From: an uncultured Candidatus Saccharibacteria bacterium
GTDB taxonomy: Bacteria; Patescibacteriota; CALEFQ01; G965231055
Reading direction: 5' to 3'
Length of the DNA: 64,000 bases
Assembly (NCBI GenBank): GCA_965231055.1
Contig: OZ246411.1
Span: 345,875 to 409,874, forward strand
The translations under genes and the position numbers were made by a program. Every line of letters starts with the position of its first letter. Position 1 is the stretch's first letter. Positions 11,132 through 49,784 of the stretch are shown here, in pieces. The notes beneath the pieces are model-generated. The model was not told the DNA's origin, did no database searches, and worked only from the letters and a program-made list of their open reading frames with translations.

Positions 11132-11209
11132 TGGTGGACCCGAGCGGGGTCGAACCGCTGACCTCGGCAATGCGAATGCCGCGCTCTAGCCAAGCTGAGC
11201 TACGGGCCC
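11132..11209 (-). tRNA. tRNA-Ala (anticodon CGC)
   Basis: Manual cloverleaf: GGGCCCG acceptor with a G3:U70 pair (Ala identity), anticodon loop TTCGCAT, CCA encoded. Confidence 0.8.
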
Positions 11210-11283
11210 TTACGAGGTGACGCTAGCTACTAAAATCTGAAACTTCTAATTCTTCTAAAACCTATCACCTAAAACCTCAACTG

Positions 11284-11359
11284 TGGTGGGCGCAGAGGGA
11301 TTCGGACCCCCGACCTTATCCTTAAGAGGGATCTGCTCTACCAACTGAGCTATGCGCCC
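11284..11359 (-). tRNA. tRNA-Lys (anticodon CTT)
   Basis: Manual cloverleaf: GGGCGCA...TGCGCCC acceptor, anticodon loop CTCTTAA, T-loop TCCGAAT, CCA encoded. Confidence 0.8.
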
Positions 11360-32192: not shown

Positions 32193-32345
32193 CTGTTTGA
32201 CGCGGGTTAAGATATGTTGCATAAAAACGGGGATAAACTAGTTGCCCAAATATAGACTTTATTATATAATTAGCAAGTAAATTTGCTCCTCGATTGGCTA
32301 ATTTTTAGCCGAAACACAAAAATCAACTTCAAAACAAAATTTTAA

Positions 32346-33446
32346 ATGGATAGAGAAAAAATACAACTTATAGTTATAGGAATTGTTATAGTGACAGTTA
32401 CATCTTTTGTGACTGTTTTTTCTTTGAAATCTGGTTTATTCGAAGAAGGAGATTTGTTCTCTTCGAGTAGAACTAAGTCTGTTCAGGAAAAATTTCTGGG
32501 AGTAAAAACTGTAACAGCTATTTCTGATTCTACGTTGGACACTGATGGCGATGGTTTGAACAATGCTGATGAGCTTGAAACTTATTCTACAGATCCTTGG
32601 AGTATGGACACTGACGGAGATCGTATTTCTGATGGCGAAGAAGTTTCAACTTATAAAACAAATCCACTTGAAAAAGATACTGATGGAGATGGATATTATG
32701 ATGGCGTAGAAATTTCTAGTGGACACGATCCTCTGGACTCAGACGCTGGAGCTTTGATAGAAAACGAAGAAGGACAAGTAGAATCAAATGTGCTTACTGA
32801 CATGATTGAGGCCGCCGAAAACGGTGAAGAAATAGATTTGAGTAAGTTTGGTGATGCAGAGATTACTGAAGATTCTATTAGAGATCTTGGAATTACATTA
32901 GGTGCCGACCCCGATGATATTGAATCATTTGAGCTACCTGAAATAGCGGATAGTGAAATAAAAATAGGCGAGGATTCTAGCACTGAGTCCGTGGTAAAAT
33001 ATTTCAATAATTTGCAGGGTGAATTATACAAAAATTGCACTTTTTGTTCTCTGGATGGAGGCAGTGAGATGATGAATGCACTTCAGGCGGGAGATCTTTC
33101 TACAATGGCTTCGTATGCAGACGATTTTGATAAAATATCGACAAATCTTTTGGATCTTGAGGTTGCTCCAGTTGAGGATGTGATAGAGCTTCACAAGCAA
33201 GGGATTGGTTTTGGTACTGTGGCATCCCAAATCGTTGGAGATATTGGAAATTTTGGTCTCTCGTATGATGGAGCGCTAAATTCTCTTATAGAATTGCGTG
33301 GATTGATCGGTTCGTTTCAACAAATTCTTACCAGCGTAGATTCTTTGTCTACTATGTATAGTCTTGGCATTCCATCCACTGGTATATCTATAAGTAGCGA
33401 TGCTAGTTCTTATGGATTGGATCTAAATAACCTCACCGAAGAATAA
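32346..33446 (+). CDS. membrane-anchored protein with thrombospondin-type-3-like Ca-binding Asp-rich repeats
   Basis: N-terminal TM, then repeated DTDGDGLNNADE / DTDGDRISDGEE / DTDGDGYYDGVE units. Confidence 0.55.
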   Translation: MDREKIQLIVIGIVIVTVTSFVTVFSLKSGLFEEGDLFSSSRTKSVQEKFLGVKTVTAISDSTLDTDGDGLNNADELETYSTDPWSMDTDGDRISDGEEVSTYKTNPLEKDTDGDGYYDGVEISSGHDPLDSDAGALIENEEGQVESNVLTDMIEAAENGEEIDLSKFGDAEITEDSIRDLGITLGADPDDIESFELPEIADSEIKIGEDSSTESVVKYFNNLQGELYKNCTFCSLDGGSEMMNALQAGDLSTMASYADDFDKISTNLLDLEVAPVEDVIELHKQGIGFGTVASQIVGDIGNFGLSYDGALNSLIELRGLIGSFQQILTSVDSLSTMYSLGIPSTGISISSDASSYGLDLNNLTEE

Positions 33447-34339: not shown

Positions 34340-34365
34340 TATTTTTATTGGTTAAAATACTTTGA

Positions 34366-34782
34366 ATGGCAAATATGCAAGACTATGCTGAGATGTTAAA
34401 GGCTGATAGGGAAGATGATCAAGAGGAAGGTAGTGATTCCGAAGATCAAGCCCAGGAACTAGCATCTGAAATGGCTAAAAGAAAAGCAAGTGAGGTTGCG
34501 GCTAATGCTGCTAACAAGATGAGGGTTGCGGCCATCGCTACGAAGAGGATGCTGGTAGCCTTTTTTACTAGTGTGATTTTGCCAGCCTTGCCTGTTTTAA
34601 TAGGTGGCGTGGTGGTGATCGCGTTAATTGCATTTGTTTTACTAGTACTAAGCTATCTAGATTTCAAAGCCGGAACTCCCATATATGATAGCGCAATAGC
34701 AGAAGAGATGAAATCGCGCGGCGAAAAAGTACAGTCTCAACTGATGACTGAAATGACAGGTACTCAATTTCCTCAAAAATAA
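34366..34782 (+). CDS. small membrane protein, first gene of the T4SS-like locus
   Basis: 138 aa. Acidic N-terminus, then a long hydrophobic stretch MLVAFFTSVILPALPVLIGGVVVIALIAFVLLVL. Confidence 0.5.
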   Translation: MANMQDYAEMLKADREDDQEEGSDSEDQAQELASEMAKRKASEVAANAANKMRVAAIATKRMLVAFFTSVILPALPVLIGGVVVIALIAFVLLVLSYLDFKAGTPIYDSAIAEEMKSRGEKVQSQLMTEMTGTQFPQK

Positions 34783-34789
34783 TAAAATA

Positions 34790-36928
34790 GTGAAAAAGAT
34801 TATTAAAACAAAAAATAGAAAATTATTTCTCTTGAGCATGGTTATATGCGCTTGTCTTTTTTTGGTTTTACTGCCGATGGGATTTGCTGGAGCTGGTTTT
34901 GAAATCATGTCATATGTAAATCAGATAATAGGTGCTGTTCTAACTTTCCTGATTAGAACAGTTTTGATGTGTATAGTATGGATCGCAGGTATTTTTGATG
35001 CTTTTGTGCAGGGTGTTTGGGCTAGAGATAGTGGTATGGTTGATTTGGGGTGGGGACTTGTGAAGGATTTGATGAACATGGGATTTATCTTGGTGATGCT
35101 TACTATCGCGTTTGCAACCATTTTCAAAATTCAGGCGTACTCTGTTAAAGCGCTTTTACCGAAGCTTTTAATAGCAATACTTCTTATAAATTTTTCCAAA
35201 CATATATGTTATGTAGTTGTGGATTTCGCTGAAGTTCTGATGTTCTCTATGAGTAACTCTGAAAATATTACATCTCTTGGTAGGGCGAAATCATTTAGTG
35301 CCTGGAAGGATTTAGAAGGATATAATGATGGTTCAACTGATGCAACGCAGATGTGGGCTAAATTTGATAGCAGATATAAGCAACCAAAGGGACAACATGG
35401 AATAGGTATGGCTTTGGTTTATGCTCTCGGGTTACCTCAGTTAGATATAAGCTTGGCTGCATCTCGTTTGGATACAAATCAAGCTGATGGTTCTAAATTT
35501 CATACCGGTGATTTTATCGTTCAGCTTGCGATGATCTTTTTATTTTCTTTGTATATAGCTTTTGTGATTTTGGGGTTGTTAGTGCTTTTTGTGGGTAGAA
35601 AAATTGGTATATGGATGTACACGATTTTTTCTCCTTATGCTTTTTGGACATTTACGGTACCATTTTTACGGAGCCATCTAAGTAAGTGGTGGTCGAAATT
35701 TGGTGGAATAGTTTTTATGGGGCCAGTCGCTATGTTTTATATATATCTTGCTAGCAACTTCATGGTTAAATCTCTTGCGACTAATTTAGAACCAATAGCT
35801 ATTAATGGCAATAATGTTGAACGATATTTCGAAGCTTTTCCTATAGGCCAGCTCAATGGTGACGCTATGTTTATTACTATAGTTGTTCTTGTGTTGCTCA
35901 CGATGGCAATTGGAACAGGTAAAAAAATGGGTATCGCCACGGCAGGTTTTGTGGAGAGTATGGGTAAAAAAATACAAGGCGGTATTACCAAGAGGCTCAA
36001 AAAGGGAGCCTCCAGAATTGGTTCTGCGGCTTGGTCTGGCACCAAAGGTGCAGTTTCTGCTACGGCAATGGGTACCAGGAGAGTCTTGCAAGGAACTCAG
36101 GATAAAGTTTTGTCTCAGTGGAAGGGCGCTCAGGAACGACGTAGTGAACGAAAGAAGGAAGTTGCTGAAAGTCAAAAGAATCTCGAGGGTTTATCCTCCG
36201 ATACTATTTCTGGTAGTCTAAATCAGTTTAAATCTACTCTTCTTGGAAGAATGACTAGGAAACAAAGGAATGATATTGGCGGAAGATTGAACGAGCTTTC
36301 GAAGAGGGGCGAGCTCGATAAGGCTATAGTTACAGATAGTAAGGGGGGGAGAAGTATAGCCGGATTCAATATTGATACCAAAGAAGGCGCAGATAAGTTG
36401 ATGAAATTTGCTGATTTTATTGGTGCGGACAGCAAAGCTATGATGAATGCTATGCCTGAGCTCTCAGCTGCAGGTATTAGTAAGTCTGATGCAAACGCGT
36501 CTAAAAGAGTTTTAGCAATTAAGGAAAAGATTAAAAAGGGAGAGGGTAAAAAGATTTCAAAGTCATCTCTTTCTGATTTTGCAGTTGCTGGAGCTCTTAG
36601 TTTGAATCAGATTAGAAACATAAATAAGGAAGGATCGGTTGATCAACAAGAGGCTCTTGTCGGTGGGATGGGTAAGGCTTTGGATATGGTATACGCTGGT
36701 CATATTACGGGGCAGGATGGGTTGTCTGTAATCAGAAATGCGAAAAATCTCGCCCTTGATAGTATGAAGGCAAGAGGAGAGCATACTAGGGGAATTGAAA
36801 AGGATTTTGATAAGTATAAAGTGAAATTTGAAAATGGTAATTTTGTCTTGATTCCACCCGCTCCTAATGTTGGACCCACTCAGCAACCTGCTCCACAGCG
36901 TCCCCCAAGAAATCAAAGACGACCTTAG
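34790..36928 (+). CDS. VirB6/TrbL-like polytopic membrane protein with hydrophilic C-terminal domain
   Basis: 712 aa. At least 7 hydrophobic helices in the first roughly 380 aa, then a charged or coiled C-terminal domain ending in a Pro-rich tail. Position immediately upstream of VirB3/VirB4 homologues. Confidence 0.45.
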   Translation: MKKIIKTKNRKLFLLSMVICACLFLVLLPMGFAGAGFEIMSYVNQIIGAVLTFLIRTVLMCIVWIAGIFDAFVQGVWARDSGMVDLGWGLVKDLMNMGFILVMLTIAFATIFKIQAYSVKALLPKLLIAILLINFSKHICYVVVDFAEVLMFSMSNSENITSLGRAKSFSAWKDLEGYNDGSTDATQMWAKFDSRYKQPKGQHGIGMALVYALGLPQLDISLAASRLDTNQADGSKFHTGDFIVQLAMIFLFSLYIAFVILGLLVLFVGRKIGIWMYTIFSPYAFWTFTVPFLRSHLSKWWSKFGGIVFMGPVAMFYIYLASNFMVKSLATNLEPIAINGNNVERYFEAFPIGQLNGDAMFITIVVLVLLTMAIGTGKKMGIATAGFVESMGKKIQGGITKRLKKGASRIGSAAWSGTKGAVSATAMGTRRVLQGTQDKVLSQWKGAQERRSERKKEVAESQKNLEGLSSDTISGSLNQFKSTLLGRMTRKQRNDIGGRLNELSKRGELDKAIVTDSKGGRSIAGFNIDTKEGADKLMKFADFIGADSKAMMNAMPELSAAGISKSDANASKRVLAIKEKIKKGEGKKISKSSLSDFAVAGALSLNQIRNINKEGSVDQQEALVGGMGKALDMVYAGHITGQDGLSVIRNAKNLALDSMKARGEHTRGIEKDFDKYKVKFENGNFVLIPPAPNVGPTQQPAPQRPPRNQRRP

Positions 36929-36942
36929 CTAGTAAATTTAAA

Positions 36943-38481: not shown

Positions 38482-39048
38482 ATGCAATTTTCATTACCAC
38501 AATTCATTGATGTAAAGGAAAAAATATTTGGGCCACTAACTCTTACCCAATTTATTTATATTGCAGCTGGTGGTGGTATGTCGTTTTTGTTGTTCCAAGT
38601 CTTGGAAATCGGCCTTTTTATAGTTGTGGCTTTTCCTATCATGGTTGTTTGTGTGATGTTGGCATTTTACAAATACAATGGAATGCCTTTTAGCAGCTTG
38701 GTTTTATCCATGGTTAGATATCTTTTGTTTAGACCGAGAGTGAGAGTTTGGAAAAGAATGGTTGAAACCAATATAAGAAGAGCTGAGGAAGCAAAAAAGA
38801 TTTCTGAGGGCGATACTCAGCACAAAGAATTATTGGATAAAAGTAGTCTTCAAAAATTGACATATGTGCTTGATACAGAGGGTGGAGCTCTTTTACACGA
38901 TAAGGGTGATGACACCAATAGAGTATCAAATGCGGAGTTATTGGATTCTCAGGCCGAATTATCTCAGGCCAGGATGGACAAAGTGATTCCACAGGTGCAG
39001 GGAGATAAAAAGAAGAGGGCAGAAGAACTACTCTCTGGTCTATATTAA
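38482..39048 (+). CDS. PrgI/VirB3-like small membrane protein
   Basis: 188 aa. N-terminal ...LTLTQFIYIAAGGGMSFLLF...FIVVAFPIMVVCVMLAF two-helix pattern typical of PrgI/VirB3-family proteins. Immediately precedes the VirB4 genes. Confidence 0.45.
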   Translation: MQFSLPQFIDVKEKIFGPLTLTQFIYIAAGGGMSFLLFQVLEIGLFIVVAFPIMVVCVMLAFYKYNGMPFSSLVLSMVRYLLFRPRVRVWKRMVETNIRRAEEAKKISEGDTQHKELLDKSSLQKLTYVLDTEGGALLHDKGDDTNRVSNAELLDSQAELSQARMDKVIPQVQGDKKKRAEELLSGLY

Positions 39049-39072
39049 AGAAATAATTTTAATAATTCTGAA

Positions 39073-39774
39073 ATGGAAAAACAAAAAGCGACAACTAGTT
39101 TGCACAATCCGTTACTTGCGAGGAATAAACCATCTGCTAGCACTCAGCATTTCTTGGATTTTTATGAGATAAGAGACGGAGTGGTGGTTATGAAGGATGG
39201 TTCTCTCAGGGCGGTTCTAATGATTTCGAGTATAAATTTTTCATTGAAATCTCAGGAGGAGCAAGATGCTATAATATATGCTTATCAAGAATTTTTGAAT
39301 TCAATGGATTTTCCATTGCAGATACTGATTCAGTCTAGGAAACTGGATATCGATAACTATCTTGAAAAACTTTCAAATCAAGAGATGAAGCAACAAAATG
39401 AACTTTTGCGCATACAAACGGCTGAATACATGGAATATGTGAGAGAGCTTGTGGAAATGGCACAGATTATGAGTAAAAACTTTTATATCGTGATTCCTTA
39501 TAGTGGTGCAGGAGATCAAAAAACCAAAAAAGGTATCAAAGAATTTCTAAATCCCGCCGTTGTTGTGACTCAAAGCGAAAAAGCATTTCAGAAAGCTAGA
39601 ACTAGGTTGCTCCAAAGACTCAGTCATGTAGAGAGTGGTCTCCAGTCCCTCGGATTAAGAGTTATGCCTCTCGAAACTCAGGAGCTTATCGAGCTTTTAT
39701 ACAATACCTACAACCCCTCCAATTATGAATCAGAGAAGTTAGTTGAAGTAGATAAATTAGAATTACAAAAATAA
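39073..39774 (+). CDS. VirB4/TrbE-family ATPase, N-terminal domain as a separate ORF
   Basis: YEIRDGVVVMKDGSLRAVLMISSINFSLKSQEEQDAIIYAYQEFLNSMDFPLQILIQSRKLD...ELLYNTYNP follows the CagE/TrbE/VirB4 N-domain pattern. Stop lies 4 nt before the next ORF, in a different frame. Confidence 0.55.
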   Translation: MEKQKATTSLHNPLLARNKPSASTQHFLDFYEIRDGVVVMKDGSLRAVLMISSINFSLKSQEEQDAIIYAYQEFLNSMDFPLQILIQSRKLDIDNYLEKLSNQEMKQQNELLRIQTAEYMEYVRELVEMAQIMSKNFYIVIPYSGAGDQKTKKGIKEFLNPAVVVTQSEKAFQKARTRLLQRLSHVESGLQSLGLRVMPLETQELIELLYNTYNPSNYESEKLVEVDKLELQK

Positions 39775-39778
39775 AATT

Positions 39779-41605
39779 ATGGCGATATTCAAAAAACAAA
39801 CGAGCAATTCAATAATGGACACAGCTGCGCAAGAAGCTATTCTTGAGGCACAAAGAATCTATAGAGAGGGAGTAGCAACAGTCAAAGACATCATAGCTCC
39901 TGCGTCTATGCAGGTTACACCAAATTTCGTGAGACTTGGTGATAAGTATGTGCGAACTATTTTCGTATATGCGTATCCTAGATTTCTTCAAACAAGCTGG
40001 TTTTCTCCTATAGTAAATCTAAATGTTACTGTTGATATTTCTATGTTTATTTATCCGGTAGATACTGAAATGCTTTTAAAGGACTTGAAAAAGAAAACTA
40101 CTCAAATTCAGACTCAGATAATGCTTGCTGAAGAAAAAGGCATGGTAAGAGACCCGGTCCTCGATACTGCTTTTAGAGATGTTGAAGAACTGCGAGATAA
40201 ACTTCAGCAAGGTACTGAAAAGTTTTTCAAGTTTGGTTTGTACATAAATATTTATGGAAACGATAAAAAAGAAATGGATTCTGTGACAGAGCAGGTTGAA
40301 TCTTTACTTGGAACGAAACTTGTTTATTCCAAGCATTCAACTTTTCAAATGGAACAGGGATTCAATTCATGCATGCCTCTTGCAAATGACGAAATGGATA
40401 TTACAAACAACATGAATACTTCTCCTCTGTCTACTACTTTTCCATTTGTTTCAAATGAGCTTACCTCAAACGACGGAATTTTGTACGGTATTAATAGACA
40501 TAACAATAGTTTGGTTTTGTTTGATAGATTCAGTTTGGAAAATGCCAATAGCGTTATTTTTGCAAAATCTGGAGCTGGAAAAAGCTATGCGACAAAACTC
40601 GAAATCTTGAGAAGCTTGATGTTGGATACTGAGGTTATAGTTATAGATCCTGAAAATGAATATAAATATCTAAGCGATGCTGTGGGTGGAACTTATCTAA
40701 ATATTTCGTTGAATGCAGATAATAGAATTAATCCCTTTGATCTTCCAAGACCAATCGGCGAGGAGACTACAGCTGATCTTTTGAGATCTGCCACAGTTTC
40801 ACTTTTGGGTCTCATGAGTTTGATGCTAGGAAAACTTGATCCCACCGAAGATTCTATCATGGACAGAGCTATTTCCGAGGCCTACGCCAAAAAAGACATA
40901 ACTGCAAACACGGATCTTTCCAAGGGAATAGAGCCTCCCACAATGCAGGATCTAAAAGAAATACTGGGAAGTATGGATGGGGGAGAGAGTTTGGCACAGA
41001 GATTGGAAAAATATACGGCTGGTACTTTTGCCGGAGTTTTCAATCAGCCAACCAACATCGAAATGGACAAACAGTTCGTGGTTTTTAGTATTAGAGACCT
41101 GGAAGACGAACTCCGACCAATAGCAATGTACGTTATTTTGGGTCATATTTGGAATATAGTAAGATCGAAGCTCAAGAAAAGAATGGTTGTAGTCGATGAG
41201 GCTTGGTGGATGATGCAACACGAAGACTCTGCGAAATTTTTGTTTGGATTGGCGAAAAGGGCTAGAAAATATTATTTGGGTGTAACTACGATAAGCCAAG
41301 ATGTTGCAGACTTTTTAAATTCAGAATACGGAAAAGCTATCGTGACAAACTCATCAATGCAGTTGCTTCTCAAGCAATCTCCCGCAGCGGTGGACTTGCT
41401 CGCTGATGTTTTTCACCTGACAGATGGAGAAAAGTTTCTACTTCTTGAAAGTGGTGTTGGCGAAGGAATATTTTTTGCGGGGCTTAAGCATGTCGCTATA
41501 AAAATAGTAGCTTCATATACGGAAGATCAAATTATAACTAGCGACCCGAGACAATTACTTGAAATTGAGCAAGCTAAAAAAGAGTTTGATGAAAAATCAG
41601 AGTAA
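39779..41605 (+). CDS. VirB4/TrbE/PrgJ-family type IV secretion ATPase (P-loop domain)
   Basis: Walker A FAKSGAGKSYATK, VIVIDPENEY, Walker B MVVVDEAWWMM, and ...TTISQDVADF... C-terminal motifs. Confidence 0.8.
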   Translation: MAIFKKQTSNSIMDTAAQEAILEAQRIYREGVATVKDIIAPASMQVTPNFVRLGDKYVRTIFVYAYPRFLQTSWFSPIVNLNVTVDISMFIYPVDTEMLLKDLKKKTTQIQTQIMLAEEKGMVRDPVLDTAFRDVEELRDKLQQGTEKFFKFGLYINIYGNDKKEMDSVTEQVESLLGTKLVYSKHSTFQMEQGFNSCMPLANDEMDITNNMNTSPLSTTFPFVSNELTSNDGILYGINRHNNSLVLFDRFSLENANSVIFAKSGAGKSYATKLEILRSLMLDTEVIVIDPENEYKYLSDAVGGTYLNISLNADNRINPFDLPRPIGEETTADLLRSATVSLLGLMSLMLGKLDPTEDSIMDRAISEAYAKKDITANTDLSKGIEPPTMQDLKEILGSMDGGESLAQRLEKYTAGTFAGVFNQPTNIEMDKQFVVFSIRDLEDELRPIAMYVILGHIWNIVRSKLKKRMVVVDEAWWMMQHEDSAKFLFGLAKRARKYYLGVTTISQDVADFLNSEYGKAIVTNSSMQLLLKQSPAAVDLLADVFHLTDGEKFLLLESGVGEGIFFAGLKHVAIKIVASYTEDQIITSDPRQLLEIEQAKKEFDEKSE

Positions 41606-44600
41606 ATTTGAAAATAAATCTATAAAAAAAGCAAGGCCAGTGTCATATTTCTGGACCAAGGTTATTTTTTTATTCACAATTATTGCTGGTTTTTCTTTGT
41701 GGCTTAGTTTTTTTATTAGTTCGGAAAATACCGCAAAGGCCTCCGTTATGTTTTCTTGGAGCCACGATGATGTAGATATAGGTGGTGATACTGAGACGGA
41801 GTATTGGAATCTTTGGGAGCTCCCAGGATATCCATCTGGTATGGCAGTTTCAGCAGGAAAAATGACTTTTCAGATCAAGGGTTTGGGTTCAAATGGAGCT
41901 TCGCAGGATGGAAAGAGGAATATAATAGGAATGATAGATAGGTCAGGGGGAGAGAATATGGCAGATAGAAATTACTGGGTGCAGGTCAGGAAAAGAAAAT
42001 ATGATCCAGAAACAGGTACGAATGCAAGATTGGAAGTTAAGGGTAGATTAAATTGTGAATGGTTCGATAATACTGCTTTTCATTCGGGTGATCCTTCTTT
42101 GGATTATGATCCTGATGTTTGGTACGATGCGTGGTTTGAGTGGAACCAGCACAGTGTTGTTTTTGGATTGTGGCATCCTGATGGATATGAAATTGTATCT
42201 GAGGCTCAAATGCCGATTCCTTTCATGGCAAGTAATCAAGCCATTTGGTTCGGAGCAGCTCCCGTGAGTGCTGCTTTTCCCGCTCAGCATGCCGAGTATA
42301 GAGATATTCAGCTAGATGCCTATGAGCTTGTTGAGGCTTCAGTTTTGGTTGGTGAGAAATGCGATCTTAGCGAAGAAGAATTGTATGAGGATGAAGGATT
42401 TGAAGATGAAGATGCTGACTTGGGGGGATCAGATAGTCAACCCAATGATCCTTATGGAAAATATATCTGCGTAGGGGGTGGAGCCGAGAATGATGTAAAA
42501 CCAAAATTTCCAGAAGATTCTTATTCTTACAATTGTTCTGACCTAATAGACGTGAATCCTCTAAAATGGGTTTTGGGCATTGATTGGGAAGAATTTAGGT
42601 ATAAATTTTCTCCAGTGTGGGGGATAACAGCGAAGGATATTCTTAGTTTTTTTGAGTGTTATTCGGAAAAACAAGGTGCTACCCCACCTTCTGTTACCAT
42701 ATCCACTAGTCCTCAAAATATTCAATATGGAGATGAAGTAAATGTAAAGATAGCTGCCAATAACTGGAAAACTAAAGCTGATAAACTTTATAAAGCCTTT
42801 TTTATAGATAATCTTTTCTATAATTCTGTATTGGCTGGAGGTACTCTACCCGAGCACTCAACGAATTATCCTGACGGTTTTGCATCGCTTCATGGTGATA
42901 AAGGGCCAGCTTGTACGCCTGTCACTAGAAGACCAGAGATTGATACTGACAATGATGGAATGGATGATGATTGGGAGAGACTCTACTTTGACGATCTCTC
43001 GGCTGGAACATGGGAAGATCCCGATGATGATGGATATATTGCTGATCGTTTTAAGAGTACCGAAAATGATTATTATATAACCCCAGTGGTTCCAATTGAT
43101 GTTCCAAATAAAACAGGTACTGGTAGAACTTTGGTTTTGCTTGGTAGCGATGATACAAAAGAAGCATTGTATGACGGAATGCCTGAAACTGATGATAGAT
43201 TTCCAAATATTTTAGAATATATCTTTGGTACCAATCCCATAGACGGTGATAGTGACGGAGATGGAGTCGGAGATGAAGAGGATATGTTTGGTACTGGAAT
43301 AAATTCTGATAATTTTTATTTTCAAACATTTAAAGAGCCAGAGGAAGGAAAGGATTCCAAATATGAAGTTAGGGCTATCGTGGTTGGTGTAAATGAAAGA
43401 AAAAAGATAAGTGTTGTTTCTGCAAAGAGTGTCTTGGAGATGCAGCGATCAAATTTGGAAGTTCTTGGAGTTACCATAAATCCTTCTTCATCGTCAGTTG
43501 CCAAAGGTGAAGAAGTCAATATAAAGGCGGTTGCCAGGGGCGCAGGAAATATAAAAGGTGCCTCCGTGAATTATGAATGGGGAATTGTAGATGTTGATGG
43601 AAATTATACTCCTGTTTGCGATCAAGTTGGATCAAATAATAGTGACACTATCTGCGGAGTCGGAAAAGATAATTGGAGTTTTAAAATACCAGATGAAGCA
43701 GCGGCTGGGGTAGAATACACCATATATTCTGTAGCTACAGACACTGTGACTGGTAGAAGAGCAGAAGCTAGGACCAAAATCACCGTTGGTGAGAGTCTAA
43801 AACCAACTATCGCAGGTTGTTTTGATGATGGTTCAGCTAGGGGATGCCATTCTGAATTGCCGCAATTTTCAGCTTGTGCTGCTGGAGAAAATCCCGATTA
43901 TGTTATTCAGGGAGAATTTGCCTTGATAAGGGCTGGCAATGCAGAGGAGGTGACTTTGGACCAAAATTCTGTTTGTACGTGGAAGCTTGACGGAGAGGTT
44001 CAGAAAGAAGATAGCGGAGCATGTAAGCAGTGTTTTTCCAATACCAGTGGTGGTGTGAAAGAAGATTCTTCTTGTAGCATTAGCGGATTGGTGTGTGATA
44101 GAACTGCTTATCTTCTGGAAGCAAATGCAGTCACCGGACATGTTTATGATTTAGAATTAAGTGTTTCTGATAAGAAAACGGGAGAAGAAAAAGCAAAGAC
44201 AAATGCGAAGATAGAGGTGAAGGGGGTAGAATCAGAAATTTGTATTGATGGTGAGTGTACCCCTGATCACGATACTCAGAGATTTAATGTAAGCAATTCA
44301 GGTTCTCATTCGGCAAGCGCTACTTTGAGAAACATTCCTAAAAATTCTACATACAAATATATGTGGACTTTGGATGGTGTAAATGCAAAAAGTGGCTCCT
44401 GCGATGTAGCTGATTGTTCACCCGAAGATTTGAGTATTAATACTGAGCTATTTGGTTTGGGCTCGCACGATGTTTCCTTCAAAGTCACTGTTTCAACGGA
44501 ATATGGTGAGAATGATGAGATTAGAAGATTTTTTAATGAATCTGGTGTAAAATTGAATATAGTAGCAGAAGGTTCCACTACAGCTTTTTGGCAAAAACTA

Positions 44601-44732
44601 AATATTATGGGTACTATTGCGGATGTTTTTCCCGATAAGTACCGAATAATATTTACTATTTTTTCTGTAACTGCTGGTTTTTCTGTATTGGGTTTTGCCG
44701 GAGTAGTAGTTTTTAAGAAAATATTTGGTTAA
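41559..44732 (+). CDS. giant surface protein (1,057 aa) with N-terminal signal-anchor, Asp-rich Ca-binding repeats and C-terminal TM anchor; paralog of the next gene
   Basis: Hydrophobic N-segment VIFLFTIIAGFSLWLSFFI. DTDNDGMDDDWE and DGDSDGDGVGDEED repeats. C-terminal IIFTIFSVTAGFSVLGFAGVVVF. The start may be the ATG at about 41589, as the listed start overlaps VirB4. Confidence 0.7.
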   Translation: MKLSKLKKSLMKNQSKFENKSIKKARPVSYFWTKVIFLFTIIAGFSLWLSFFISSENTAKASVMFSWSHDDVDIGGDTETEYWNLWELPGYPSGMAVSAGKMTFQIKGLGSNGASQDGKRNIIGMIDRSGGENMADRNYWVQVRKRKYDPETGTNARLEVKGRLNCEWFDNTAFHSGDPSLDYDPDVWYDAWFEWNQHSVVFGLWHPDGYEIVSEAQMPIPFMASNQAIWFGAAPVSAAFPAQHAEYRDIQLDAYELVEASVLVGEKCDLSEEELYEDEGFEDEDADLGGSDSQPNDPYGKYICVGGGAENDVKPKFPEDSYSYNCSDLIDVNPLKWVLGIDWEEFRYKFSPVWGITAKDILSFFECYSEKQGATPPSVTISTSPQNIQYGDEVNVKIAANNWKTKADKLYKAFFIDNLFYNSVLAGGTLPEHSTNYPDGFASLHGDKGPACTPVTRRPEIDTDNDGMDDDWERLYFDDLSAGTWEDPDDDGYIADRFKSTENDYYITPVVPIDVPNKTGTGRTLVLLGSDDTKEALYDGMPETDDRFPNILEYIFGTNPIDGDSDGDGVGDEEDMFGTGINSDNFYFQTFKEPEEGKDSKYEVRAIVVGVNERKKISVVSAKSVLEMQRSNLEVLGVTINPSSSSVAKGEEVNIKAVARGAGNIKGASVNYEWGIVDVDGNYTPVCDQVGSNNSDTICGVGKDNWSFKIPDEAAAGVEYTIYSVATDTVTGRRAEARTKITVGESLKPTIAGCFDDGSARGCHSELPQFSACAAGENPDYVIQGEFALIRAGNAEEVTLDQNSVCTWKLDGEVQKEDSGACKQCFSNTSGGVKEDSSCSISGLVCDRTAYLLEANAVTGHVYDLELSVSDKKTGEEKAKTNAKIEVKGVESEICIDGECTPDHDTQRFNVSNSGSHSASATLRNIPKNSTYKYMWTLDGVNAKSGSCDVADCSPEDLSINTELFGLGSHDVSFKVTVSTEYGENDEIRRFFNESGVKLNIVAEGSTTAFWQKLNIMGTIADVFPDKYRIIFTIFSVTAGFSVLGFAGVVVFKKIFG

Positions 44733-44735
44733 AAA

Positions 44736-47700
44736 ATGAATACTAATTTTAGAAAAATTAAAATTCTATGTACCGGCTGTGTTATCTTGGTTGGTCTTTT
44801 TATTTTGCTTTTTTCAAATAATGTAAATGCTCTTCCTAAAAATCCTGACAGTGGGGCTTGCACCGAAGACGGAGCTCCTATAAATTTCGACGTCGCAGTT
44901 AGAAAATCAAATAATAGCGGAACGCCGGGGAGTATTAGGGCAAATATAGGCGCTCTCGGGGGAGACCCTGTAGATTTTGGAAACAGTTCTGTGGGTTCTA
45001 GCGACTATACTTTAAAATTTTCTTGGAGCGATGATGGTACTGCCAAAGGTTATATAAATGGAATTGAAGTAGGTTCTGGAAATTTTACTGCGGATTATTC
45101 AGGAACAGTGAAGGATTTATTCTTTGTTTATCTCGGAGAGGGTGTGGCTGGTATATCTAGGTCAAGCGACACTAGAATATTTTATAAAAATATAAAAGTA
45201 TCAGTTGATGGTGAAGAATTTGTTGATACTGCTTTTAATACAACAGATCTCTCCCAGAGCGGAGCGAGTGTGCAAGGAGGAATATTTGTTGGCGATTATT
45301 GGCACATGAGTTCATCGAATACTGGGAGAATCAAGTTTAGTTTTCCAATGGGGCAGTCACGAAGAGTTAGTAGTGGAGAGGTTACTTTGGTTTTTAAATT
45401 TGCAGATGATTTTGACGAATATCAAGCTACAAAAACTTCGTTTGAGCCGGAAATATTTAATTTTGGCACTTTGCCTTGGGTTTCTGAGTCAGAATGTGCT
45501 GATATGCCTGAAAATGACAATGAGCCAACCGAAGATCCTTCGGAGGAGCCAGAGAATAATCCCGAAGATCCATATGATACTGAAACTTGCTTTGGAGTAA
45601 GCGAGGATGAGCCACCTCAAATAGTTGGTATTCCTGGTATTCCTTTTGGATGGGATTCTAGCAAAATGAAGCTAGTTTGGTTTTGGGATTTTGAAACAGT
45701 AAAAAATTGGCTTGAGGGTTACGAAGAGCGCATGCAAGGCAAGCCAAGCGTAGAAATTGCTATTAGTCCAACAGATCCTGCCGATGGCGATAGTGTTACT
45801 GTTTCACTGCAAGCTGAAAACTTTAGGACTAAGGCTGGTGGTACAGGATCTTCTTCCAACAAAACATATTCTGCTGTATTTATTTCAAGTGAAAATGATT
45901 CAAATCACAGAGATCAGTTTGGAGATAGATATTCTGGTCCCGTACTTTATAATACCGTTTCTGCTGGGGGAGTGGTGCCTCAGATGGTGATTGAGGGTAC
46001 TCCAAATTTAGGAGATTTGTGCAGGGATTTCACCAGAATTCCAGAAATAGATTCTGATGGTGATTCCATGGATGATGATTGGGAATATTTGCATTTTGCT
46101 GGTACAAATAAATGCGGTCCTTTAAATGATACATATTGTGGTGATTCAAAAGATCAAGTTATTCAAATGGTATCGCCAGATGCTGATCCCGATGAAGACG
46201 GAGCAGAAGCTACTAGATTTAAAAATGATGATGAAAAATATGCTACTCCCATATCTTTCATGAGGAAAGGTATAGCTGGCGGTGGAGTAAAACCAGAAAC
46301 GTATATTGTGGGAAATGCAAATAAAGATGGTTTAAAGGATGGCAGCGGAGATATAAACGACCTTACGACACCAGCTTTTATGAACTGGCAAGAATATGTA
46401 GCTGGAACTAACCCCATCAATTCAGATACGGATGGAGATGGTGTTACAGATGAGAAAGAAATATACGGAGAGGGTTTTAGTACTATTGAATGGATGGCTA
46501 AGGGTGAACCCCATGACGAAGCCAAAGTTAATGCAATAGTAATAGGCATAAGTCAGCGAAAAGATCTTGCCATAGTTTCAAAAGAATCAAAAATTTATAT
46601 GGGAGATGGTTCCTCTCAGGGCAAGCTCAGTGTTGTTTTGAATTCCTCCCTGAATCCAATAGTAATAGGTCAGCCCGTAGACATAACGGCTACGGCTCAA
46701 GGCTCGGTAAGTGGAGATTCAAGCTCCGTGAGTTTTGAGTGGGGCTTGGTATTTGGCACCGAAACATTTTCCATATGCGATACAATGGCTGATGGCGATA
46801 ATCCTAGGTGCGGACTAGGAAAGGATACTTGGATGTTTAATACTAATGACTTCAAAGATCAATTGGACGAATATTTTAGTGCAGGAAATGATTACCTAGA
46901 GGTTTATGTAGAAGCAACCGACACCATTTCTGGTAAAAAAGCAGAAGCTAGGTTGAAACTATATATAGGAACCGAATCATTGCTTAGAGTCTCGGGCTGT
47001 TACAAGGATACTTTGGGATTGGAAGCCGTTGAATGTAGTTGTTATGTGAGCAATACGATTGATCCCACGGAAACTTCTTGCGGACTTCAGGGTGAGAATT
47101 TGATGATCGGAACCAAGGGGGAAACTTTTTCAGATGATGAACTTAAGGATATGCTTTTTGAATGGTCTATTGATGGTGATAAAATTTCAGAGTCTTCGGG
47201 TTCCGGATATCAGGACTACAGGCTGGCCGATGGAACAGATAAGGTTATGAAAAGAGATAGCATGATTATTCCAATAATGAAAAACGGTGGAGATTCTTAT
47301 GAGGTTGAATTGCTTGTTTCTAGAATAGATACTGGCGAAAGAGTTGATGGTGGTAAAATTTATGTTGGGGTTGGTAATCCCAGTATCGATCTTTCAGTTA
47401 ATGGAGCCAGCATTGATCACGGAGAAGAAGTCTTTAATATAGGAGATACTGGAACTTACACTATTGACGGACAGATTTACAATATTCCTTTGAATTCGGA
47501 ATACGAATATAAATTCATGATTGATAATATTGTTATTGGTTCTGGTGCTAGCGTTTATGACTCAGTAGGTAAAACAGAAAGTATTGATATAAATTCTTCT
47601 TACTACTCCTCGGGAAGGCATAATATAAAAATGACGGTTTCAGGTGCAACCTCGAGTGAGGCTACTAGTGAAACTGAGGTTGCGAAGAGGGGAGCTGTTC

Positions 47701-47903
47701 GTAGATTTTTCGGAGAAGGATATGGTATAATAAATATAACTGACAGCGAGACTGGTCAAGCTTTTATGGATAAAGCTAGGTTTATGGCATCGGGTTTTTC
47801 AAATATAATGGCGAGTGCGGTCAGGGTTACTGGCGTGGCAGGTCTTGCTTTTGTAGGCTTCTATGGAATTTTAAGATTATTTGATAAAAGAAAAATTTTC
47901 TAA
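44736..47903 (+). CDS. giant surface protein (1,055 aa), tandem paralog of 41559..44732
   Basis: Same architecture. DSDGDSMDDDWEYLHF and NSDTDGDGVTDEKE repeats. Shared ...KAEARLK/TK... block and RRFF...TM C-terminus. Confidence 0.7.
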   Translation: MNTNFRKIKILCTGCVILVGLFILLFSNNVNALPKNPDSGACTEDGAPINFDVAVRKSNNSGTPGSIRANIGALGGDPVDFGNSSVGSSDYTLKFSWSDDGTAKGYINGIEVGSGNFTADYSGTVKDLFFVYLGEGVAGISRSSDTRIFYKNIKVSVDGEEFVDTAFNTTDLSQSGASVQGGIFVGDYWHMSSSNTGRIKFSFPMGQSRRVSSGEVTLVFKFADDFDEYQATKTSFEPEIFNFGTLPWVSESECADMPENDNEPTEDPSEEPENNPEDPYDTETCFGVSEDEPPQIVGIPGIPFGWDSSKMKLVWFWDFETVKNWLEGYEERMQGKPSVEIAISPTDPADGDSVTVSLQAENFRTKAGGTGSSSNKTYSAVFISSENDSNHRDQFGDRYSGPVLYNTVSAGGVVPQMVIEGTPNLGDLCRDFTRIPEIDSDGDSMDDDWEYLHFAGTNKCGPLNDTYCGDSKDQVIQMVSPDADPDEDGAEATRFKNDDEKYATPISFMRKGIAGGGVKPETYIVGNANKDGLKDGSGDINDLTTPAFMNWQEYVAGTNPINSDTDGDGVTDEKEIYGEGFSTIEWMAKGEPHDEAKVNAIVIGISQRKDLAIVSKESKIYMGDGSSQGKLSVVLNSSLNPIVIGQPVDITATAQGSVSGDSSSVSFEWGLVFGTETFSICDTMADGDNPRCGLGKDTWMFNTNDFKDQLDEYFSAGNDYLEVYVEATDTISGKKAEARLKLYIGTESLLRVSGCYKDTLGLEAVECSCYVSNTIDPTETSCGLQGENLMIGTKGETFSDDELKDMLFEWSIDGDKISESSGSGYQDYRLADGTDKVMKRDSMIIPIMKNGGDSYEVELLVSRIDTGERVDGGKIYVGVGNPSIDLSVNGASIDHGEEVFNIGDTGTYTIDGQIYNIPLNSEYEYKFMIDNIVIGSGASVYDSVGKTESIDINSSYYSSGRHNIKMTVSGATSSEATSETEVAKRGAVRRFFGEGYGIINITDSETGQAFMDKARFMASGFSNIMASAVRVTGVAGLAFVGFYGILRLFDKRKIF

Positions 47904-47904
47904 A

Positions 47905-48330
47905 ATGAATACTAAAAACAATTTGAAAATTTCCTTACTATTACTGATTTTGATTGCTTCATTTTGTATTGCCAATGCTGTTTTTGCTACAGAAGCCGAT
48001 ACTGACAAAGTAAAAATGGGAGTTCCTGGTGGACCAGAGACTTATAGTGAAGAAAATGGATTGCAGAAATATGTAAGCGGAATTTTTACTTGGGCTATCG
48101 GTGTTGCTGGTGTGTGCGCTTTGATTATGGTTATTTTTGGTGGATATCAGTATATGGCCTCTGCTTCAAATCCTGAGCTCAAGAAAGTAGCAATAAATAC
48201 GATAACTCAGGCGCTCATAGGTCTCGCCATAGCTATTTGTACATTTGTTTTGCTTAAAACAATAGATCCCAGTATTTTGGGTTTGCAGCTAGAAATTCCT
48301 GAAGTAGGAGTTTCTGGCGATAGCCATTAA
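47905..48330 (+). CDS. VirB2/TrbC-like pilin candidate (signal peptide plus two hydrophobic helices)
   Basis: MNTKNNLKISLLLLILIASFCIANAVFA signal peptide. Then FTWAIGVAGVCALIMVIFGG-YQYMASASNPELKK-AINTITQALIGLAIAICTFVLL, the classic T4SS pilin topology. The listed ORF start 47881 overlaps the previous gene, so the ATG at 47905 is preferred. Confidence 0.45.
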   Translation: MNTKNNLKISLLLLILIASFCIANAVFATEADTDKVKMGVPGGPETYSEENGLQKYVSGIFTWAIGVAGVCALIMVIFGGYQYMASASNPELKKVAINTITQALIGLAIAICTFVLLKTIDPSILGLQLEIPEVGVSGDSH

Positions 48331-48334
48331 AAAA

Positions 48335-49705
48335 ATGAAAACAAAAAAAATACTCATTATTGTTGCTGTGATATTGGTCGTAGCTATTGCTGTGGTGTAT
48401 TTTGTATTTATTAGAAAAGATAGTAGTTCTGAAACAGCGAATAATTCAGGTGCCAATTCCAATCAGAATCTCTCATCAAATGAAAACAGCAGTAATGATG
48501 CCTCATTTTCTGAATTCCCATATTTAAGTCTTCCCGAGATTTCGAGAATAGTAAAAAGCGAGACTATCTCACCAGCGCTTTCTGATAGTGGGGAGGAAAT
48601 AATATATTTTGATACAAACAAAGGTGATTTTTACTCTGTCGGAATAGATGGAAATGGAAATAAAGCGGTTTCAGAAAAAAGTTTTACTAGCGTGAAAAAT
48701 GTTAATTTTTCATCAAAAGCAGATAAAGTAGCTATAACGTTTTCAGGTGAAAACGATGAGGACAAAGTGTATATTTATGACTTTTTTATTAAATCTCTTA
48801 ATAAGCTAAGTCCAAATATAAGTGGTGTAGCTTTTGCTCCAGATAGCGAGTCCATTGTTTATCAATACGCCGATAATCAAGCAAAAATATACAATATAAG
48901 CAAAGCTCTTTCCGATGGATCTTCTTTTCAGAAATTGAAAGATTTTTATTCCCCAGGGGCAAGTATAAGATGGGAAGAAAGCTTCGATAAAATTTTTATC
49001 ACGGATTTGCCTTCTAGTAATGCTCTGTCGAATCTTTATTCACTGACAACCAGTGGAGAACTCAACAAAATTATTGATTCTGTTTATGGTCTTCAGGTGG
49101 TATTTTCGCCAAATGGAGATGGTTTACTATATTCATCTCTTAGCGCAGATAAAAAAACACTTTCTTTATTCTATGCTGATGCGAAGGGTAGGATCAAATA
49201 CAATTTGCGTTTGGCTACTTTTGCCTCCAAATCAGCAATAAGCCCAGATGGTAAATATGCTTATGTGGCAGTTCCTGTTAACATCAAGAAGGGTTCAAAA
49301 ATAGAAATTTCTAAATACTCTGAGGGTAGTACTACTCTCACCAAAGATCAGATATGGAGAGTTGATCTTGGTACGGGAGAAAAAGTTATGATCTTAAATC
49401 CTGAAGAGTATAATTTTATTGTTGATGTGAGAAATCCTTTTCTATCTCACGATGGAAAAATGATGTTTTTCTGGGATAAAGGGGACAAGGGAATTTATGC
49501 AGTCAATCTTTCTAAGCTCGAATCAAAAGAGGGATTAGAAAAAACTAGCGCAAAAGATCCATCAGAGGATTCTGATTCGGATAATTCTGGAGAAGAAGAT
49601 GGTGATACTCAAAACAATACTACCGATGACGATGCTTCCAATGAGAGTAATGAAGAAGAACAGAAGACACCAGAGCAGAGACTTTTTGAAAAACTTGGTT
49701 TTTAA
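48335..49705 (+). CDS. membrane-anchored protein with TolB/PD40-like beta-propeller repeats and acidic C-terminal tail
   Basis: N-terminal TM ILIIVAVILVVAIAVVYFVFI. Recurring ...SPDG/SPNGD...Y motifs (FSPNGDGLLYSS, ISPDGKYAYVAV, LSHDGKMMFFWD). D/E/S-rich C-terminus. Confidence 0.45.
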   Translation: MKTKKILIIVAVILVVAIAVVYFVFIRKDSSSETANNSGANSNQNLSSNENSSNDASFSEFPYLSLPEISRIVKSETISPALSDSGEEIIYFDTNKGDFYSVGIDGNGNKAVSEKSFTSVKNVNFSSKADKVAITFSGENDEDKVYIYDFFIKSLNKLSPNISGVAFAPDSESIVYQYADNQAKIYNISKALSDGSSFQKLKDFYSPGASIRWEESFDKIFITDLPSSNALSNLYSLTTSGELNKIIDSVYGLQVVFSPNGDGLLYSSLSADKKTLSLFYADAKGRIKYNLRLATFASKSAISPDGKYAYVAVPVNIKKGSKIEISKYSEGSTTLTKDQIWRVDLGTGEKVMILNPEEYNFIVDVRNPFLSHDGKMMFFWDKGDKGIYAVNLSKLESKEGLEKTSAKDPSEDSDSDNSGEEDGDTQNNTTDDDASNESNEEEQKTPEQRLFEKLGF

Positions 49706-49784
49706 CATAAAAAAACTAAAAAATCCCTCCATTGTGGGGGATTTTATTTTGGGGTAATATTGATTAGTAAATTAAAACAATACA

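Follow-up and report, generated by a model that had tools for sequence, protein, structure and literature searches.

Tandem paralogous proteins with predicted Ig-like stalks and putative Ca2+ sites occupy a fixed slot between the VirB4 and pilin genes of a Patescibacteria-type type IV secretion locus

The type IV secretion systems (T4SS) of Patescibacteria form a clade that combines a VirB4 ATPase with TrsD, a PrgI/VirB3-like protein and a VirB2-like pilin (Quinonero-Coronel et al. 2025, PMC12102498). These systems resemble the MPF-FATA systems of monoderms, and both relaxases, which are mostly absent, and VirB8 or VirB9 homologues, of which few are detectable, are scarce (PMC12102498). The same phylum-wide survey of 2025 stated that "no adhesins, such as PrgB, were detected"; genes without profile matches were left unannotated, and array-encoded proteins of ~700 to 1,300 amino acids (aa) were not described there (PMC12102498). 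Ca. Southlakia epibionticum, a cultivated Saccharibacterium, cannot grow epibiotically without its T4SS and several adhesins (PMC10633639). We examined two adjacent genes, termed A and B, in a stretch of 64,000 nucleotides (the window) from contig OZ246411.1 of an uncultured Candidatus Saccharibacteria bacterium, in which both genes are located between the VirB4 and pilin genes of a T4SS locus. The analysis indicated that A and B are true paralogs, that they belong to a conserved, previously unnamed family and that this family holds a fixed slot in the Patescibacteria-type T4SS locus. The members of this VirB4-to-pilin array family are the best candidates for the undetected attachment proteins of these systems. 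The two genes are as follows.

41589..44732, + strand: gene A (P0001), 1047 aa from an ATG start; family member, matched end to end by the family profile at 498 bits
44736..47903, + strand: gene B (P0002), 1055 aa; family member, matched end to end by the family profile at 518 bits

An earlier reading of this DNA, made from the letters and their translations (the sequence-only reading), had described two adjacent open reading frames (ORFs) of near-equal length (1,057 and 1,055 aa), and these were present in the ORF list; it had also termed the proteins giant, for which ~1,050 aa is too short, and they are better described as large. The mechanical ORF of gene A starts at a TTG (41559-44732, 1057 aa), and the ATG at 41589, which is the start of this gene in the gene calls of two independent assemblies, is most likely the correct one. 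Residue numbers of A count from this ATG (1047 aa) except in the BLASTP range A318-1056, which refers to the 1057-aa ORF. The pairwise alignment proposed in the sequence-only reading detected significant similarity beyond the Asp-rich repeats, with a BLASTP E value of 2e-67 and levels of 29% identity and 48% positives over ~780 residues (A318-1056 versus B276-1055). The similarity extended well past the Asp-rich motifs, since the stalk alone, which has no such motif, gave an E value of 4e-17 and the core alone gave 3e-47; the family profile was covered by both proteins from position 5 to position 842. No relationship was detectable between the first ~300 aa of A and B by BLASTP, by comparison of the heads alone or by hhalign, and at the DNA level only short islands of similarity were observed (55 nt at 78% and 40 nt at 80%). 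These islands hinted at a relationship between the two heads, which was rejected when hhalign of the B head against an A-type head profile returned a probability of 1.3%. The single architecture attributed to both proteins was upheld, with the exception that their first ~300 aa are not detectably related.

The extent of the family was examined by an exhaustive HMMER search of an A/B profile against 1.84 billion cluster representatives. This search detected 247 matches at an E value of ≤1e-3, 66 at ≤1e-10 and 10 at ≤1e-30. Among the 150 listed of the 247 matches, the full architecture was present in ~70 proteins of 640 to 1,330 aa, which matched well beyond a single stretch resembling a thrombospondin type-3 (TSP3) repeat, and most of these proteins had an N-terminal signal-like segment and a C-terminal transmembrane (TM) segment. 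The remaining listed matches were generic multi-repeat TSP3 proteins that aligned only at profile positions ~280 to 310. The hallmark of the family starts with an immunoglobulin (Ig)-like domain of the form PS.xI..SP..GE.V...A..NFRT...Y..WC, followed by NSVVAGG. A first motif region, CC.P.TR.P..DxDxDGMDDxWE..YF, is preceded by AGG and is followed by the regions of motif 2 (DPDxDGY.A.RF) and motif 3 (TNxEEYIxGTDPxxxDTDGDGxxDE.D..GVGQ) and then by two further beta-sandwiches. This hallmark was present in both A and B, with a Ser for Gly substitution in motif 1 of B.

No Pfam or NCBIfam family was found for A or B, and a search of PDB sequences at E ≤ 1 returned nothing except one chance-level match; the full-architecture relatives were likewise without a Pfam, NCBIfam or PDB sequence match. 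All family clusters that were looked up were unnamed or "hypothetical" at the source (for example, EKD49116.1), and no description of a VirB4-to-pilin array family was found in the literature on T4SS, VirB4, pilins, adhesins and TSP3/thrombospondin in Patescibacteria or the Candidate Phyla Radiation. Word-indexed homology searches with A alone, with a 25-sequence stalk alignment or with a 12-sequence full alignment recovered only A and generic TSP3-repeat proteins and missed paralog B. A degenerate DNA pattern for TR.P..DxDxDG[MLI].D.WE was specific within the window, and among the matches listed for metagenome contigs it detected a family member on one short contig (L014). A pattern scan of genome contigs confirmed three loci among the matches listed, none of which encoded family members (generic TSP3 patterns). 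One locus, from a Candidatus Uhrbacteria metagenome-assembled genome (L004, 6946-10681), encodes a YkuD L,D-transpeptidase with TSP3 repeats, which is not a family member; it is encoded downstream of a VirD4/TrwB-like coupling-protein homologue, with a single alpha/beta hydrolase gene in between.

The placement of A and B inside a T4SS-like locus, between VirB4 and a pilin, had been proposed in the sequence-only reading and was borne out by Pfam and NCBIfam matches for PrgI, TrsD-like, VirB4 and VirB2-like pilin proteins. A and B are part of a run of 13 co-directional, tightly packed genes, which includes two small proteins between the first two entries below.

32346..33446, + strand: small TM-anchored protein with true TSP3 repeats (Pfam TSP3_bac, 1.6e-13), first gene of the unit
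34790..36928, + strand: polytopic membrane protein of 712 aa, probable VirB6 analogue; no Pfam match, homologues at the same position in loci L127 and L132
36943-38481: 512-aa protein; no Pfam match, homologues at the same position in L127 and L132
38482..39048, + strand: PrgI/VirB3-like protein (Pfam PF12666, 1.2e-13)
39073..39774, + strand: TrsD/TraC-N-like protein of 233 aa, resembling the N-terminal part of VirB4 (Pfam TraC_F_IV, 3e-5 and 23.6 bits, below the cut-off of 28.1)
39779..41605, + strand: VirB4 ATPase of 608 aa (Pfam P-loop_TraG, AAA_10 and CagE_TrbE_VirB)
47881..48330, + strand: VirB2-like T4SS pilin (Pfam PF18895, 4e-7; NCBIfam Mbov_0395 pilin-like, 7e-12), likely start at ATG 47905
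48335..49705, + strand: TolB/PD40-like beta-propeller protein (Pfam/NCBIfam scans) whose N-terminus has a TM segment and whose acidic tail is of low complexity, last gene of the unit

The ATG of A overlaps the VirB4 stop by 17 nt, the gap between A and B is 3 nt and the gap between B and the pilin gene is 1 nt. These abutting or overlapping start and stop codons suggest co-transcription and probably coupled translation, so that co-expression of A and B with the T4SS genes can be inferred. The best promoter-like site (32242-32270) and the best terminator-like site (49726-49740) bracket the interval 32242-49740, which is weak evidence from consensus scans only. Housekeeping genes flank the unit: ksgA lies on the upstream side, and the downstream side has radA, a purine DNA glycosylase-like gene and recG. 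No relaxase was seen among the window ORFs scanned and no rRNA was found in the window, which has a G+C content of ~38%. T4SS loci of class ABY1 commonly include recG and radA (PMC12102498). The combination of TrsD, PrgI, VirB4 and a VirB2-like pilin with radA and recG nearby and no relaxase seen indicated a T4SS locus of the Patescibacteria clade, probably of the class ABY1 type, an assignment made from gene context. VirB4 is split (39073-41605) into a TrsD/TraC-N-like ORF and an ATPase ORF, and this split was repeated in every related locus, where a PF26593 TraC-like protein occupies the TrsD position and is followed by VirB4; the separate TrsD-like ORF agrees with the TrsD finding of the survey (PMC12102498).

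Eleven family members were looked up for context, yielding eight independent usable loci (L126, L127, L129, L131, L132, L133, L136 and L137) and three that were duplicate or short. In all eight loci, or nine of nine with the window, the large genes between VirB4 and the pilin gene were family members. The arrays comprised two genes in L126 and L137, three in L127, L129 and L136 and five in L131, L132 and L133. Wherever the contig continued, the downstream order was T4SS pilin, a propeller-like protein of ~400 aa, radA, glycosylase and recG, and in L132 and L137 the upstream half was also matched, beginning with ksgA or the TSP3 protein and running past the VirB6-like protein as far as PrgI. 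The propeller gene after the pilin gene was also observed in L126, L127, L129, L133 and L137, with Tricorn/PD40 matches in L137; propellers of this type are not known to act in T4SS. Counterparts of the TSP3 protein of 32346-33446 were present at the same position in L132 (377-1399) and L137 (1-275), so that a second putative Ca-binding surface protein is part of the T4SS gene unit. One or two small genes (128 to 283 aa, no Pfam match) were located between VirB4 and the array in most related loci (L127 6623-7009, L129 3616-4422, L131 155-775, L132 9452-9964, L133 701-1246 and L137 8620-9983); they were absent from L136 and from the window, where gene A overlaps the VirB4 stop.

This conserved position bears on whether A and B could be generic envelope or surface-layer proteins, serving as wall spacers or in nutrient capture, whose linkage to the T4SS is the inherited synteny of one clade without functional coupling. 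The ksgA, radA, glycosylase and recG flanks are shared by all loci, so the synteny may be largely vertical inheritance, and the structure searches described below also matched S-layer and matrix proteins (for example, the Nitrosopumilus S-layer and RbmA). Gene order was retained, however, even where VirB4 identity drops to 63% and that of the family proteins to ~25%, copy number changed only within the VirB4-pilin slot and no second copy of the array family was found elsewhere in the 64-kb window. As the junctions with VirB4 and the pilin gene also imply co-transcription, we consider a generic envelope role improbable.

The DxDxDG-type Asp-rich motifs noted in the sequence-only reading were all found in the two proteins, at the following positions.

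42942..42977, + strand: A Ca-site motif 1, DTDNDGMDDDWE, preceded by the family hallmark AGG...C..TR.P
43017..43034, + strand: A Ca-site motif 2, DPDDDG, sequence verified and family-conserved
43248..43283, + strand: A Ca-site motif 3, DSDGDGVGDEED, TSP3-like, sequence verified and family-conserved
46050..46085, + strand: B Ca-site motif 1, DSDGDSMDDDWE, with Ser in place of Gly, sequence verified
46185..46202, + strand: B Ca-site motif 2, DPDEDG, sequence verified
46425..46460, + strand: B Ca-site motif 3, DTDGDGVTDEKE, sequence verified

Each protein has three instances of this Ca2+-loop motif, of the DxDxDGxxDxxE type. In a 30-sequence alignment with a mean column identity of 19%, the columns that were invariant or conserved at ≥90% were mostly the Asp and Gly residues of the three motifs, together with R447, W462, E543 and P550. 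W462 of motif 1 was invariant and D452, G457 and D460 were conserved at ≥90%, while D479, D481 and G482 of motif 2 and D554, D558, G559 and D562 of motif 3 were invariant. The residues that coordinate Ca2+ in thrombospondin are the ones that are invariant in the family motifs. Motif 3 aligned with a bona fide TSP3 repeat of the 32346 protein in hhalign (E = 2.8e-4 over 20 columns, probability of 41%). Conservation of this kind suggests that the three DxDxDG sites most likely bind Ca2+.

Structure predictions were centred on the conserved core of the family.

42651..43838, + strand: conserved family core of A (aa 355-750), comprising an Ig-like domain, the Ca-loop region and two beta-sandwiches
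45708..47015, + strand: conserved family core of B (aa 325-760), from family alignments

An AlphaFold2 model of the A core (aa 355-750), built from a 50-sequence family alignment, had a mean confidence (pLDDT) of 85 and a predicted TM-score (pTM) of 0.71. In this model a first beta-sandwich was followed by a region of ~160 residues of loops and short helices that contains the three Asp motifs (mostly at pLDDT >90) and then by beta-sandwiches 2 and 3. The full-length model of A reached a pLDDT of only 52 overall; in it an N-terminal helix and a beta-rich head were followed by an acidic linker that was disordered, by a chain of beta-sandwiches at pLDDT 60 to 85 over ~aa 570-995 and by a long helix at the C-terminus. 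Foldseek searches of the PDB and of a viral library detected solely multidomain chains of the Ig/FN3/macroglobulin type at a probability of 1.0, among them complement C3/C5, Hoc, RbmA, Dscam, MpIBP and GhpA; the query-normalised TM-scores were ≤0.26, indicating likeness per domain and not of the whole module. The family profile matched Ig-like domains of phage Hoc with E values of 1.5e-14 and 4e-8, mapping to A 779-997 and B 790-1007. A profile made from A and B alone did not reach Hoc and found no Ig-like match, and for this reason the Ig-like assignment rests on the family alignment and the models. A thioester protein of the alpha2-macroglobulin/complement C3 type was a top Foldseek match but was rejected, as the C[GL]EQ motif was not found in A or B and the TM-scores of 0.08 to 0.25 were per-domain only.

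Hydropathy analysis detected one N-terminal and one C-terminal hydrophobic segment in each protein. The layout of both is a signal peptide, a paralog-specific head of ~250 aa, an acidic linker, the conserved core, further Ig-like domains and a C-terminal helix, TM segment and basic tail.

41589..41741, + strand: A signal peptide-like segment (MKNQ...NTAKA) with an AxA motif kept in homologous heads (hydropathy)
41742..42488, + strand: A-type head (~aa 52-300), beta-rich, fold unassigned (low-confidence model), with homologues among the heads of arrays in other genomes, one paralog in each
43839..44585, + strand: A membrane-proximal Ig-like stalk (aa 751-999), a beta-sandwich chain at pLDDT 60-85 whose closest relative is the B stalk
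44586..44729, + strand: A C-terminal amphipathic helix, TM segment and basic tail (…VVVFKKIFG), from hydropathy, the model and family comparison
44736..44831, + strand: B signal peptide (…FSNNVNA), from hydropathy, sequence verified
44832..45545, + strand: B head (aa 33-270), without a detectable relative
47016..47765, + strand: B Ig-like stalk (aa 761-1010), from the Hoc match of the family profile and the match to the A stalk
47766..47900, + strand: B C-terminal helix, TM segment and basic tail (…LRLFDKRKIF), from hydropathy and family comparison

The N-terminal segments end in AxA-type motifs (AKA in A and VNA in B), and signal-like starts with AxA motifs were present in all array members. 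As homologues keep these AxA-type ends, cleaved Sec signal peptides are more likely than the signal anchors proposed earlier, although a hydrophobic segment was indeed present in both proteins. Cleaved signal peptides together with a C-terminal anchor suggest a type-I topology in which the head is distal to the membrane. The C-terminal amphipathic helix, TM segment and basic tail were kept in most array members. The RRFF motif, which had been combined with this TM segment into one C-terminal module, was present in both proteins (A aa 979 and B aa 989) but was private to the A/B pair within the family; the KAEARxK block was recovered as RRAEARTK in A and KKAEARLK in B. Sortase anchoring through LPXTG was rejected, with no LP.TG motif in A or B and nothing LPXTG-like in the last 60 aa of any array member. 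A giant adhesin of the RTX/type I secretion system (T1SS) kind was also rejected, as the GG.G.D motif was not found in either protein and both have an N-terminal signal peptide and a C-terminal TM segment.

Export signals combined with an Ig-like stalk fit a surface protein. The location of the genes inside a T4SS locus would also fit T4SS substrates, effectors or toxins delivered into the host cell, and the function of Patescibacteria T4SS is thought to be protein export or similar (PMC10633639). Such a role appears extremely improbable for A and B, as Sec-type signal peptides combined with a membrane anchor at the C-terminus point to Sec export of proteins that then stay on the producer, and the all-beta Ig-like rod has no enzymatic or toxin domain.

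Comparison of the window with the other loci detected large differences in divergence between components. Levels of identity were 63 to 94% for VirB4, 45 to 51% for RadA and 45 to 58% for RecG, compared to 24 to 30% for A and B versus their counterparts, 34 to 39% for the pilin, 24 to 33% for the propeller protein and 31 to 37% for PrgI. These results indicated that the exposed components of the T4SS locus evolve much faster than the VirB4 ATPase. VirB4 itself was unusually conserved, with 94% identity to L126 (131 aa available), 77% to L127 and L129 and 63% to L132; RadA and RecG of the genome pairs compared for VirB4 were only 45 to 58% identical. The five-gene arrays of L132 and L133 paired position by position at 37 to 46% identity, and the five-gene array is thus older than the split of these genomes.

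The heads and stalks of A and B had different relationships. The A head matched gene 1 of L127 (101 bits), P0033 (97), P0015 (68), gene 3 of L129 (63), gene 1 of L126 (61) and P0018 (57), whereas the B head had no match to A, to any other family member or to Pfam, and no match in Pfam or the PDB was obtained with the A-type head profile. The stalks of A and B were mutual best matches, at 73 and 69 bits versus ≤35 bits for any other protein. This mosaic suggests either replacement of heads after a local duplication or homogenisation of stalks by gene conversion within the array. Because the heads are unrelated while the stalks are closest relatives, the modular pattern points to head replacement or within-array homogenisation on an old divergence and not to point-wise diversifying selection, where the sequence-only reading had pointed to diversifying selection. 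No close variants were found: family clusters had one or two members each, the Logan contigs were identical to the window and L127 was identical to L128. The nearest homologues of A and B were 24 to 33% identical, a level at which synonymous sites are presumably saturated, and orthologues were ≤46% identical.

As the main alternative, the paralogs could be structural subunits, possibly hetero-oligomeric, that form an envelope-spanning collar or stalk guiding the VirB2-like pilus or channel across the wall and surface layer of a monoderm cell and replacing the missing VirB7/9/10 core, with heads that contact other T4SS parts and not the host. The family genes have a strict position within the operon, with VirB4 on one side and the pilin gene on the other, positional orthologues are kept one to one between the L132 and L133 arrays, the A-type head is conserved across genomes and the core, a compact module predicted with confidence, has invariant residues. 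Furthermore, the T4SS of Patescibacteria is of a monoderm type yet accompanied by pilins, and the VirB8/VirB9 homologues that can be detected in these bacteria are few (PMC12102498). We nevertheless regard this explanation as rather unlikely, since a copy number of 2 to 5 with heads that differ or are unique is unusual for stoichiometric core subunits and the family proteins evolve far faster than VirB4. In addition, a single C-terminal TM segment and a long Ig-like rod were present with no oligomerisation domain recognised, and no similarity of A or B to any T4SS core component was detected in Pfam or NCBIfam.

Surface-type, variable, multi-paralog proteins encoded in a T4SS operon could also act in surface exclusion or self-recognition, marking siblings or blocking unproductive sibling T4SS contacts, like PrgA or TraT-type proteins, instead of binding the host. 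Gram-positive T4SS operons encode exclusion proteins beside adhesins; the 2025 survey names only PrgB (PMC12102498). This role seems very improbable here, given that no similarity to known exclusion proteins was detected in Pfam or NCBIfam, that a genome of ~0.84 Mb (length of the contig) would pay a high price for five large paralogs and that most Patescibacteria T4SS are without relaxases and probably do not conjugate, leaving exclusion without an obvious role.

Three further features of the window were observed outside the T4SS unit. A 1240-aa ORF (1574-5296) had no Pfam family and no match to the array-family profile. Five tRNA genes (His, Arg-TCT, Arg-TCG, Ala-CGC and Lys-CTT) were located within ~1 kb on the - strand (10385-11359). 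A LysM and peptidase M23 protein (26069-27214, - strand) was encoded ~5 kb upstream of the T4SS locus; domains of this type have been noted in VirB1-like wall hydrolases of Patescibacteria (PMC12102498).

Overall, the pattern of anchoring, predicted fold, position and divergence is best explained if A and B are T4SS-associated adhesins, that is, membrane-anchored, Ca2+-stiffened stalks presenting paralog-specific heads for attachment or partner recognition, a reading to which we assign about an even chance. On this reading both proteins would be at the cell surface as accessory parts of a chromosomal T4SS of the Patescibacteria type, probably that of class ABY1. Following export by Sec and removal of the signal peptide, the C-terminal TM helix with its short basic cytoplasmic tail would tether each protein in the cytoplasmic membrane. 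The ectodomain is predicted to be a rod of five to six Ig-like beta-sandwiches, and the rod module with three near-invariant DxDxDG sites most likely binds Ca2+, which would stiffen the rod. The rod would lift the paralog-specific N-terminal head through the wall and surface layer, and the heads may bind structures of the host or partner cell and so keep that cell in reach of the co-expressed VirB2-like pilus and channel, a role that would be functionally similar to that of surface adhesins in the conjugation systems of Gram-positive bacteria. If one genome encodes several paralogs that differ in their heads, several ligand specificities could result. A bolder extension, possible yet doubtful, is that the array is the host-range determinant of this class of epibiotic Patescibacteria, a hitherto unrecognised, lineage-specific T4SS module of 2 to 5 membrane-anchored, Ca2+-stiffened stalks whose swappable heads would choose the host cell that the pilus-bearing monoderm T4SS engages; a heteromeric collar built from the stalks may in addition take the place of the diderm outer core complex.

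Several observations weigh against the adhesin reading. Neither head matched a known lectin or adhesin fold or family, and the model of the A head is of low confidence. Pfam TSP3_bac (PF18884) scored 12.6 and 14.1 bits on excised segments of A and B, below the 25-bit cut-off, and no match was obtained with the full-length proteins at E ≤ 0.1, so that TSP3_bac membership at the curated threshold was rejected; PKD domains (PF00801/PF16407) were rejected likewise, PKD_2 scoring 22.6 bits versus a cut-off of 39.2 and PKD 17.2 versus 23.5. That five positional orthologues have been kept one to one in L132 and L133 would be expected of non-redundant structural subunits no less than of distinct adhesins. 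In the L131 array (L131 865-15327), four of five members had no strongly hydrophobic TM segment at the C-terminus, a feature that nearly all other members have; these four could be released forms or could reflect an alignment or gene-call issue. The shared housekeeping flanks indicate that the sampled genomes are related and that independent origins of the T4SS association are fewer than the loci counted. Finally, the members looked up were the top-ranked ones and three deliberately divergent ones, a sample that leaves room for family copies away from T4SS.

A T4SS was essential for epibiotic growth in the one genetically tractable representative of Patescibacteria (PMC10633639), and the A/B family provides concrete candidates for contact with the host. 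These candidates have a recognisable signature, a confidently predicted core, a strictly conserved VirB4-pilin slot and heads that differ between paralogs and genomes, so that attachment and host specificity of ultra-small episymbionts become testable by comparative genomics, binding assays and cryo-electron tomography. The array family occupies ~6 to 16 kb per small genome (here 6.3 kb of ~844 kb), a share that argues for an important function.

Compared to described systems, A and B are of a known kind in being Ig-like, putatively Ca2+-binding surface proteins tied to a monoderm T4SS, while the family itself, the triple-site core module, the array organisation and the pairing with a VirB2-like pilin are new. 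Tandem divergent VirB2-like pilins of Patescibacteria provide a parallel, as they are also tandem divergent paralogs of an exposed T4SS component, with an average identity of 25% (PMC12102498); identity within the A/B family is at a similar level. Those pilins are ~100 to 200 aa in length, whereas the present locus has one pilin gene and it is a protein of ~700 to 1,300 aa that has been multiplied. The similarity to phage Hoc (1.5e-14 and 4e-8), which was the top PDB match in Foldseek and among the top viral ones, extends to the use of Ig-like domains for weak surface adherence, but the relationship is limited to the membrane-proximal stalk domains and the context is entirely different.

Proteins with TSP3 repeats (PF18884) share loops of the DxDxDGxxDxxE type with A and B, and motif 3 of A aligned with a true repeat. 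In A and B, however, three isolated sites replace the repeat array, Pfam scores were below the cut-off and the sites are part of a family-specific module (AGG...CC.P.TR.P...WE..YF) packed between beta-sandwiches. The Ca2+-rigidified Ig-like adhesins, such as Marinomonas MpIBP (PDB 5irb, which was among the Foldseek matches) and those of the SiiE/BapA type, resemble A and B in having a beta-sandwich rod, presumed stiffening by Ca2+ and a distal ligand-binding region. They are secreted through a T1SS and contain RTX motifs and near-identical repeats that number from tens to hundreds, while in A and B the domains are five to six in number and dissimilar, the export signals are of the Sec type, a TM segment serves as the anchor and the GGxGxD motif is absent.

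The closest parallels in function are PrgB/aggregation substance with PrgC of pCF10, TraO of pIP501 and other MPF-FATA adhesins, which are likewise encoded in a monoderm-type T4SS operon. A and B are predicted to share with PrgB-type adhesins export by Sec, a C-terminal tether and an Ig-like stalk with a distal binding region, together with a proposed role in bringing the partner to the channel. The two groups differ in that A and B have no sequence or Pfam relationship to the PrgB-type adhesins, are anchored by a TM helix and basic tail instead of LPXTG and belong to a family with a triple DxDxDG module and arrays of 2 to 5 divergent paralogs; furthermore, the Gram-positive systems are without a VirB2-like pilin (PMC12102498), whereas the A/B family is paired with one. 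On the adhesin reading, which we hold to be evenly balanced, the A/B family would consist of functional analogues, and not homologues, of the PrgB-type adhesins.

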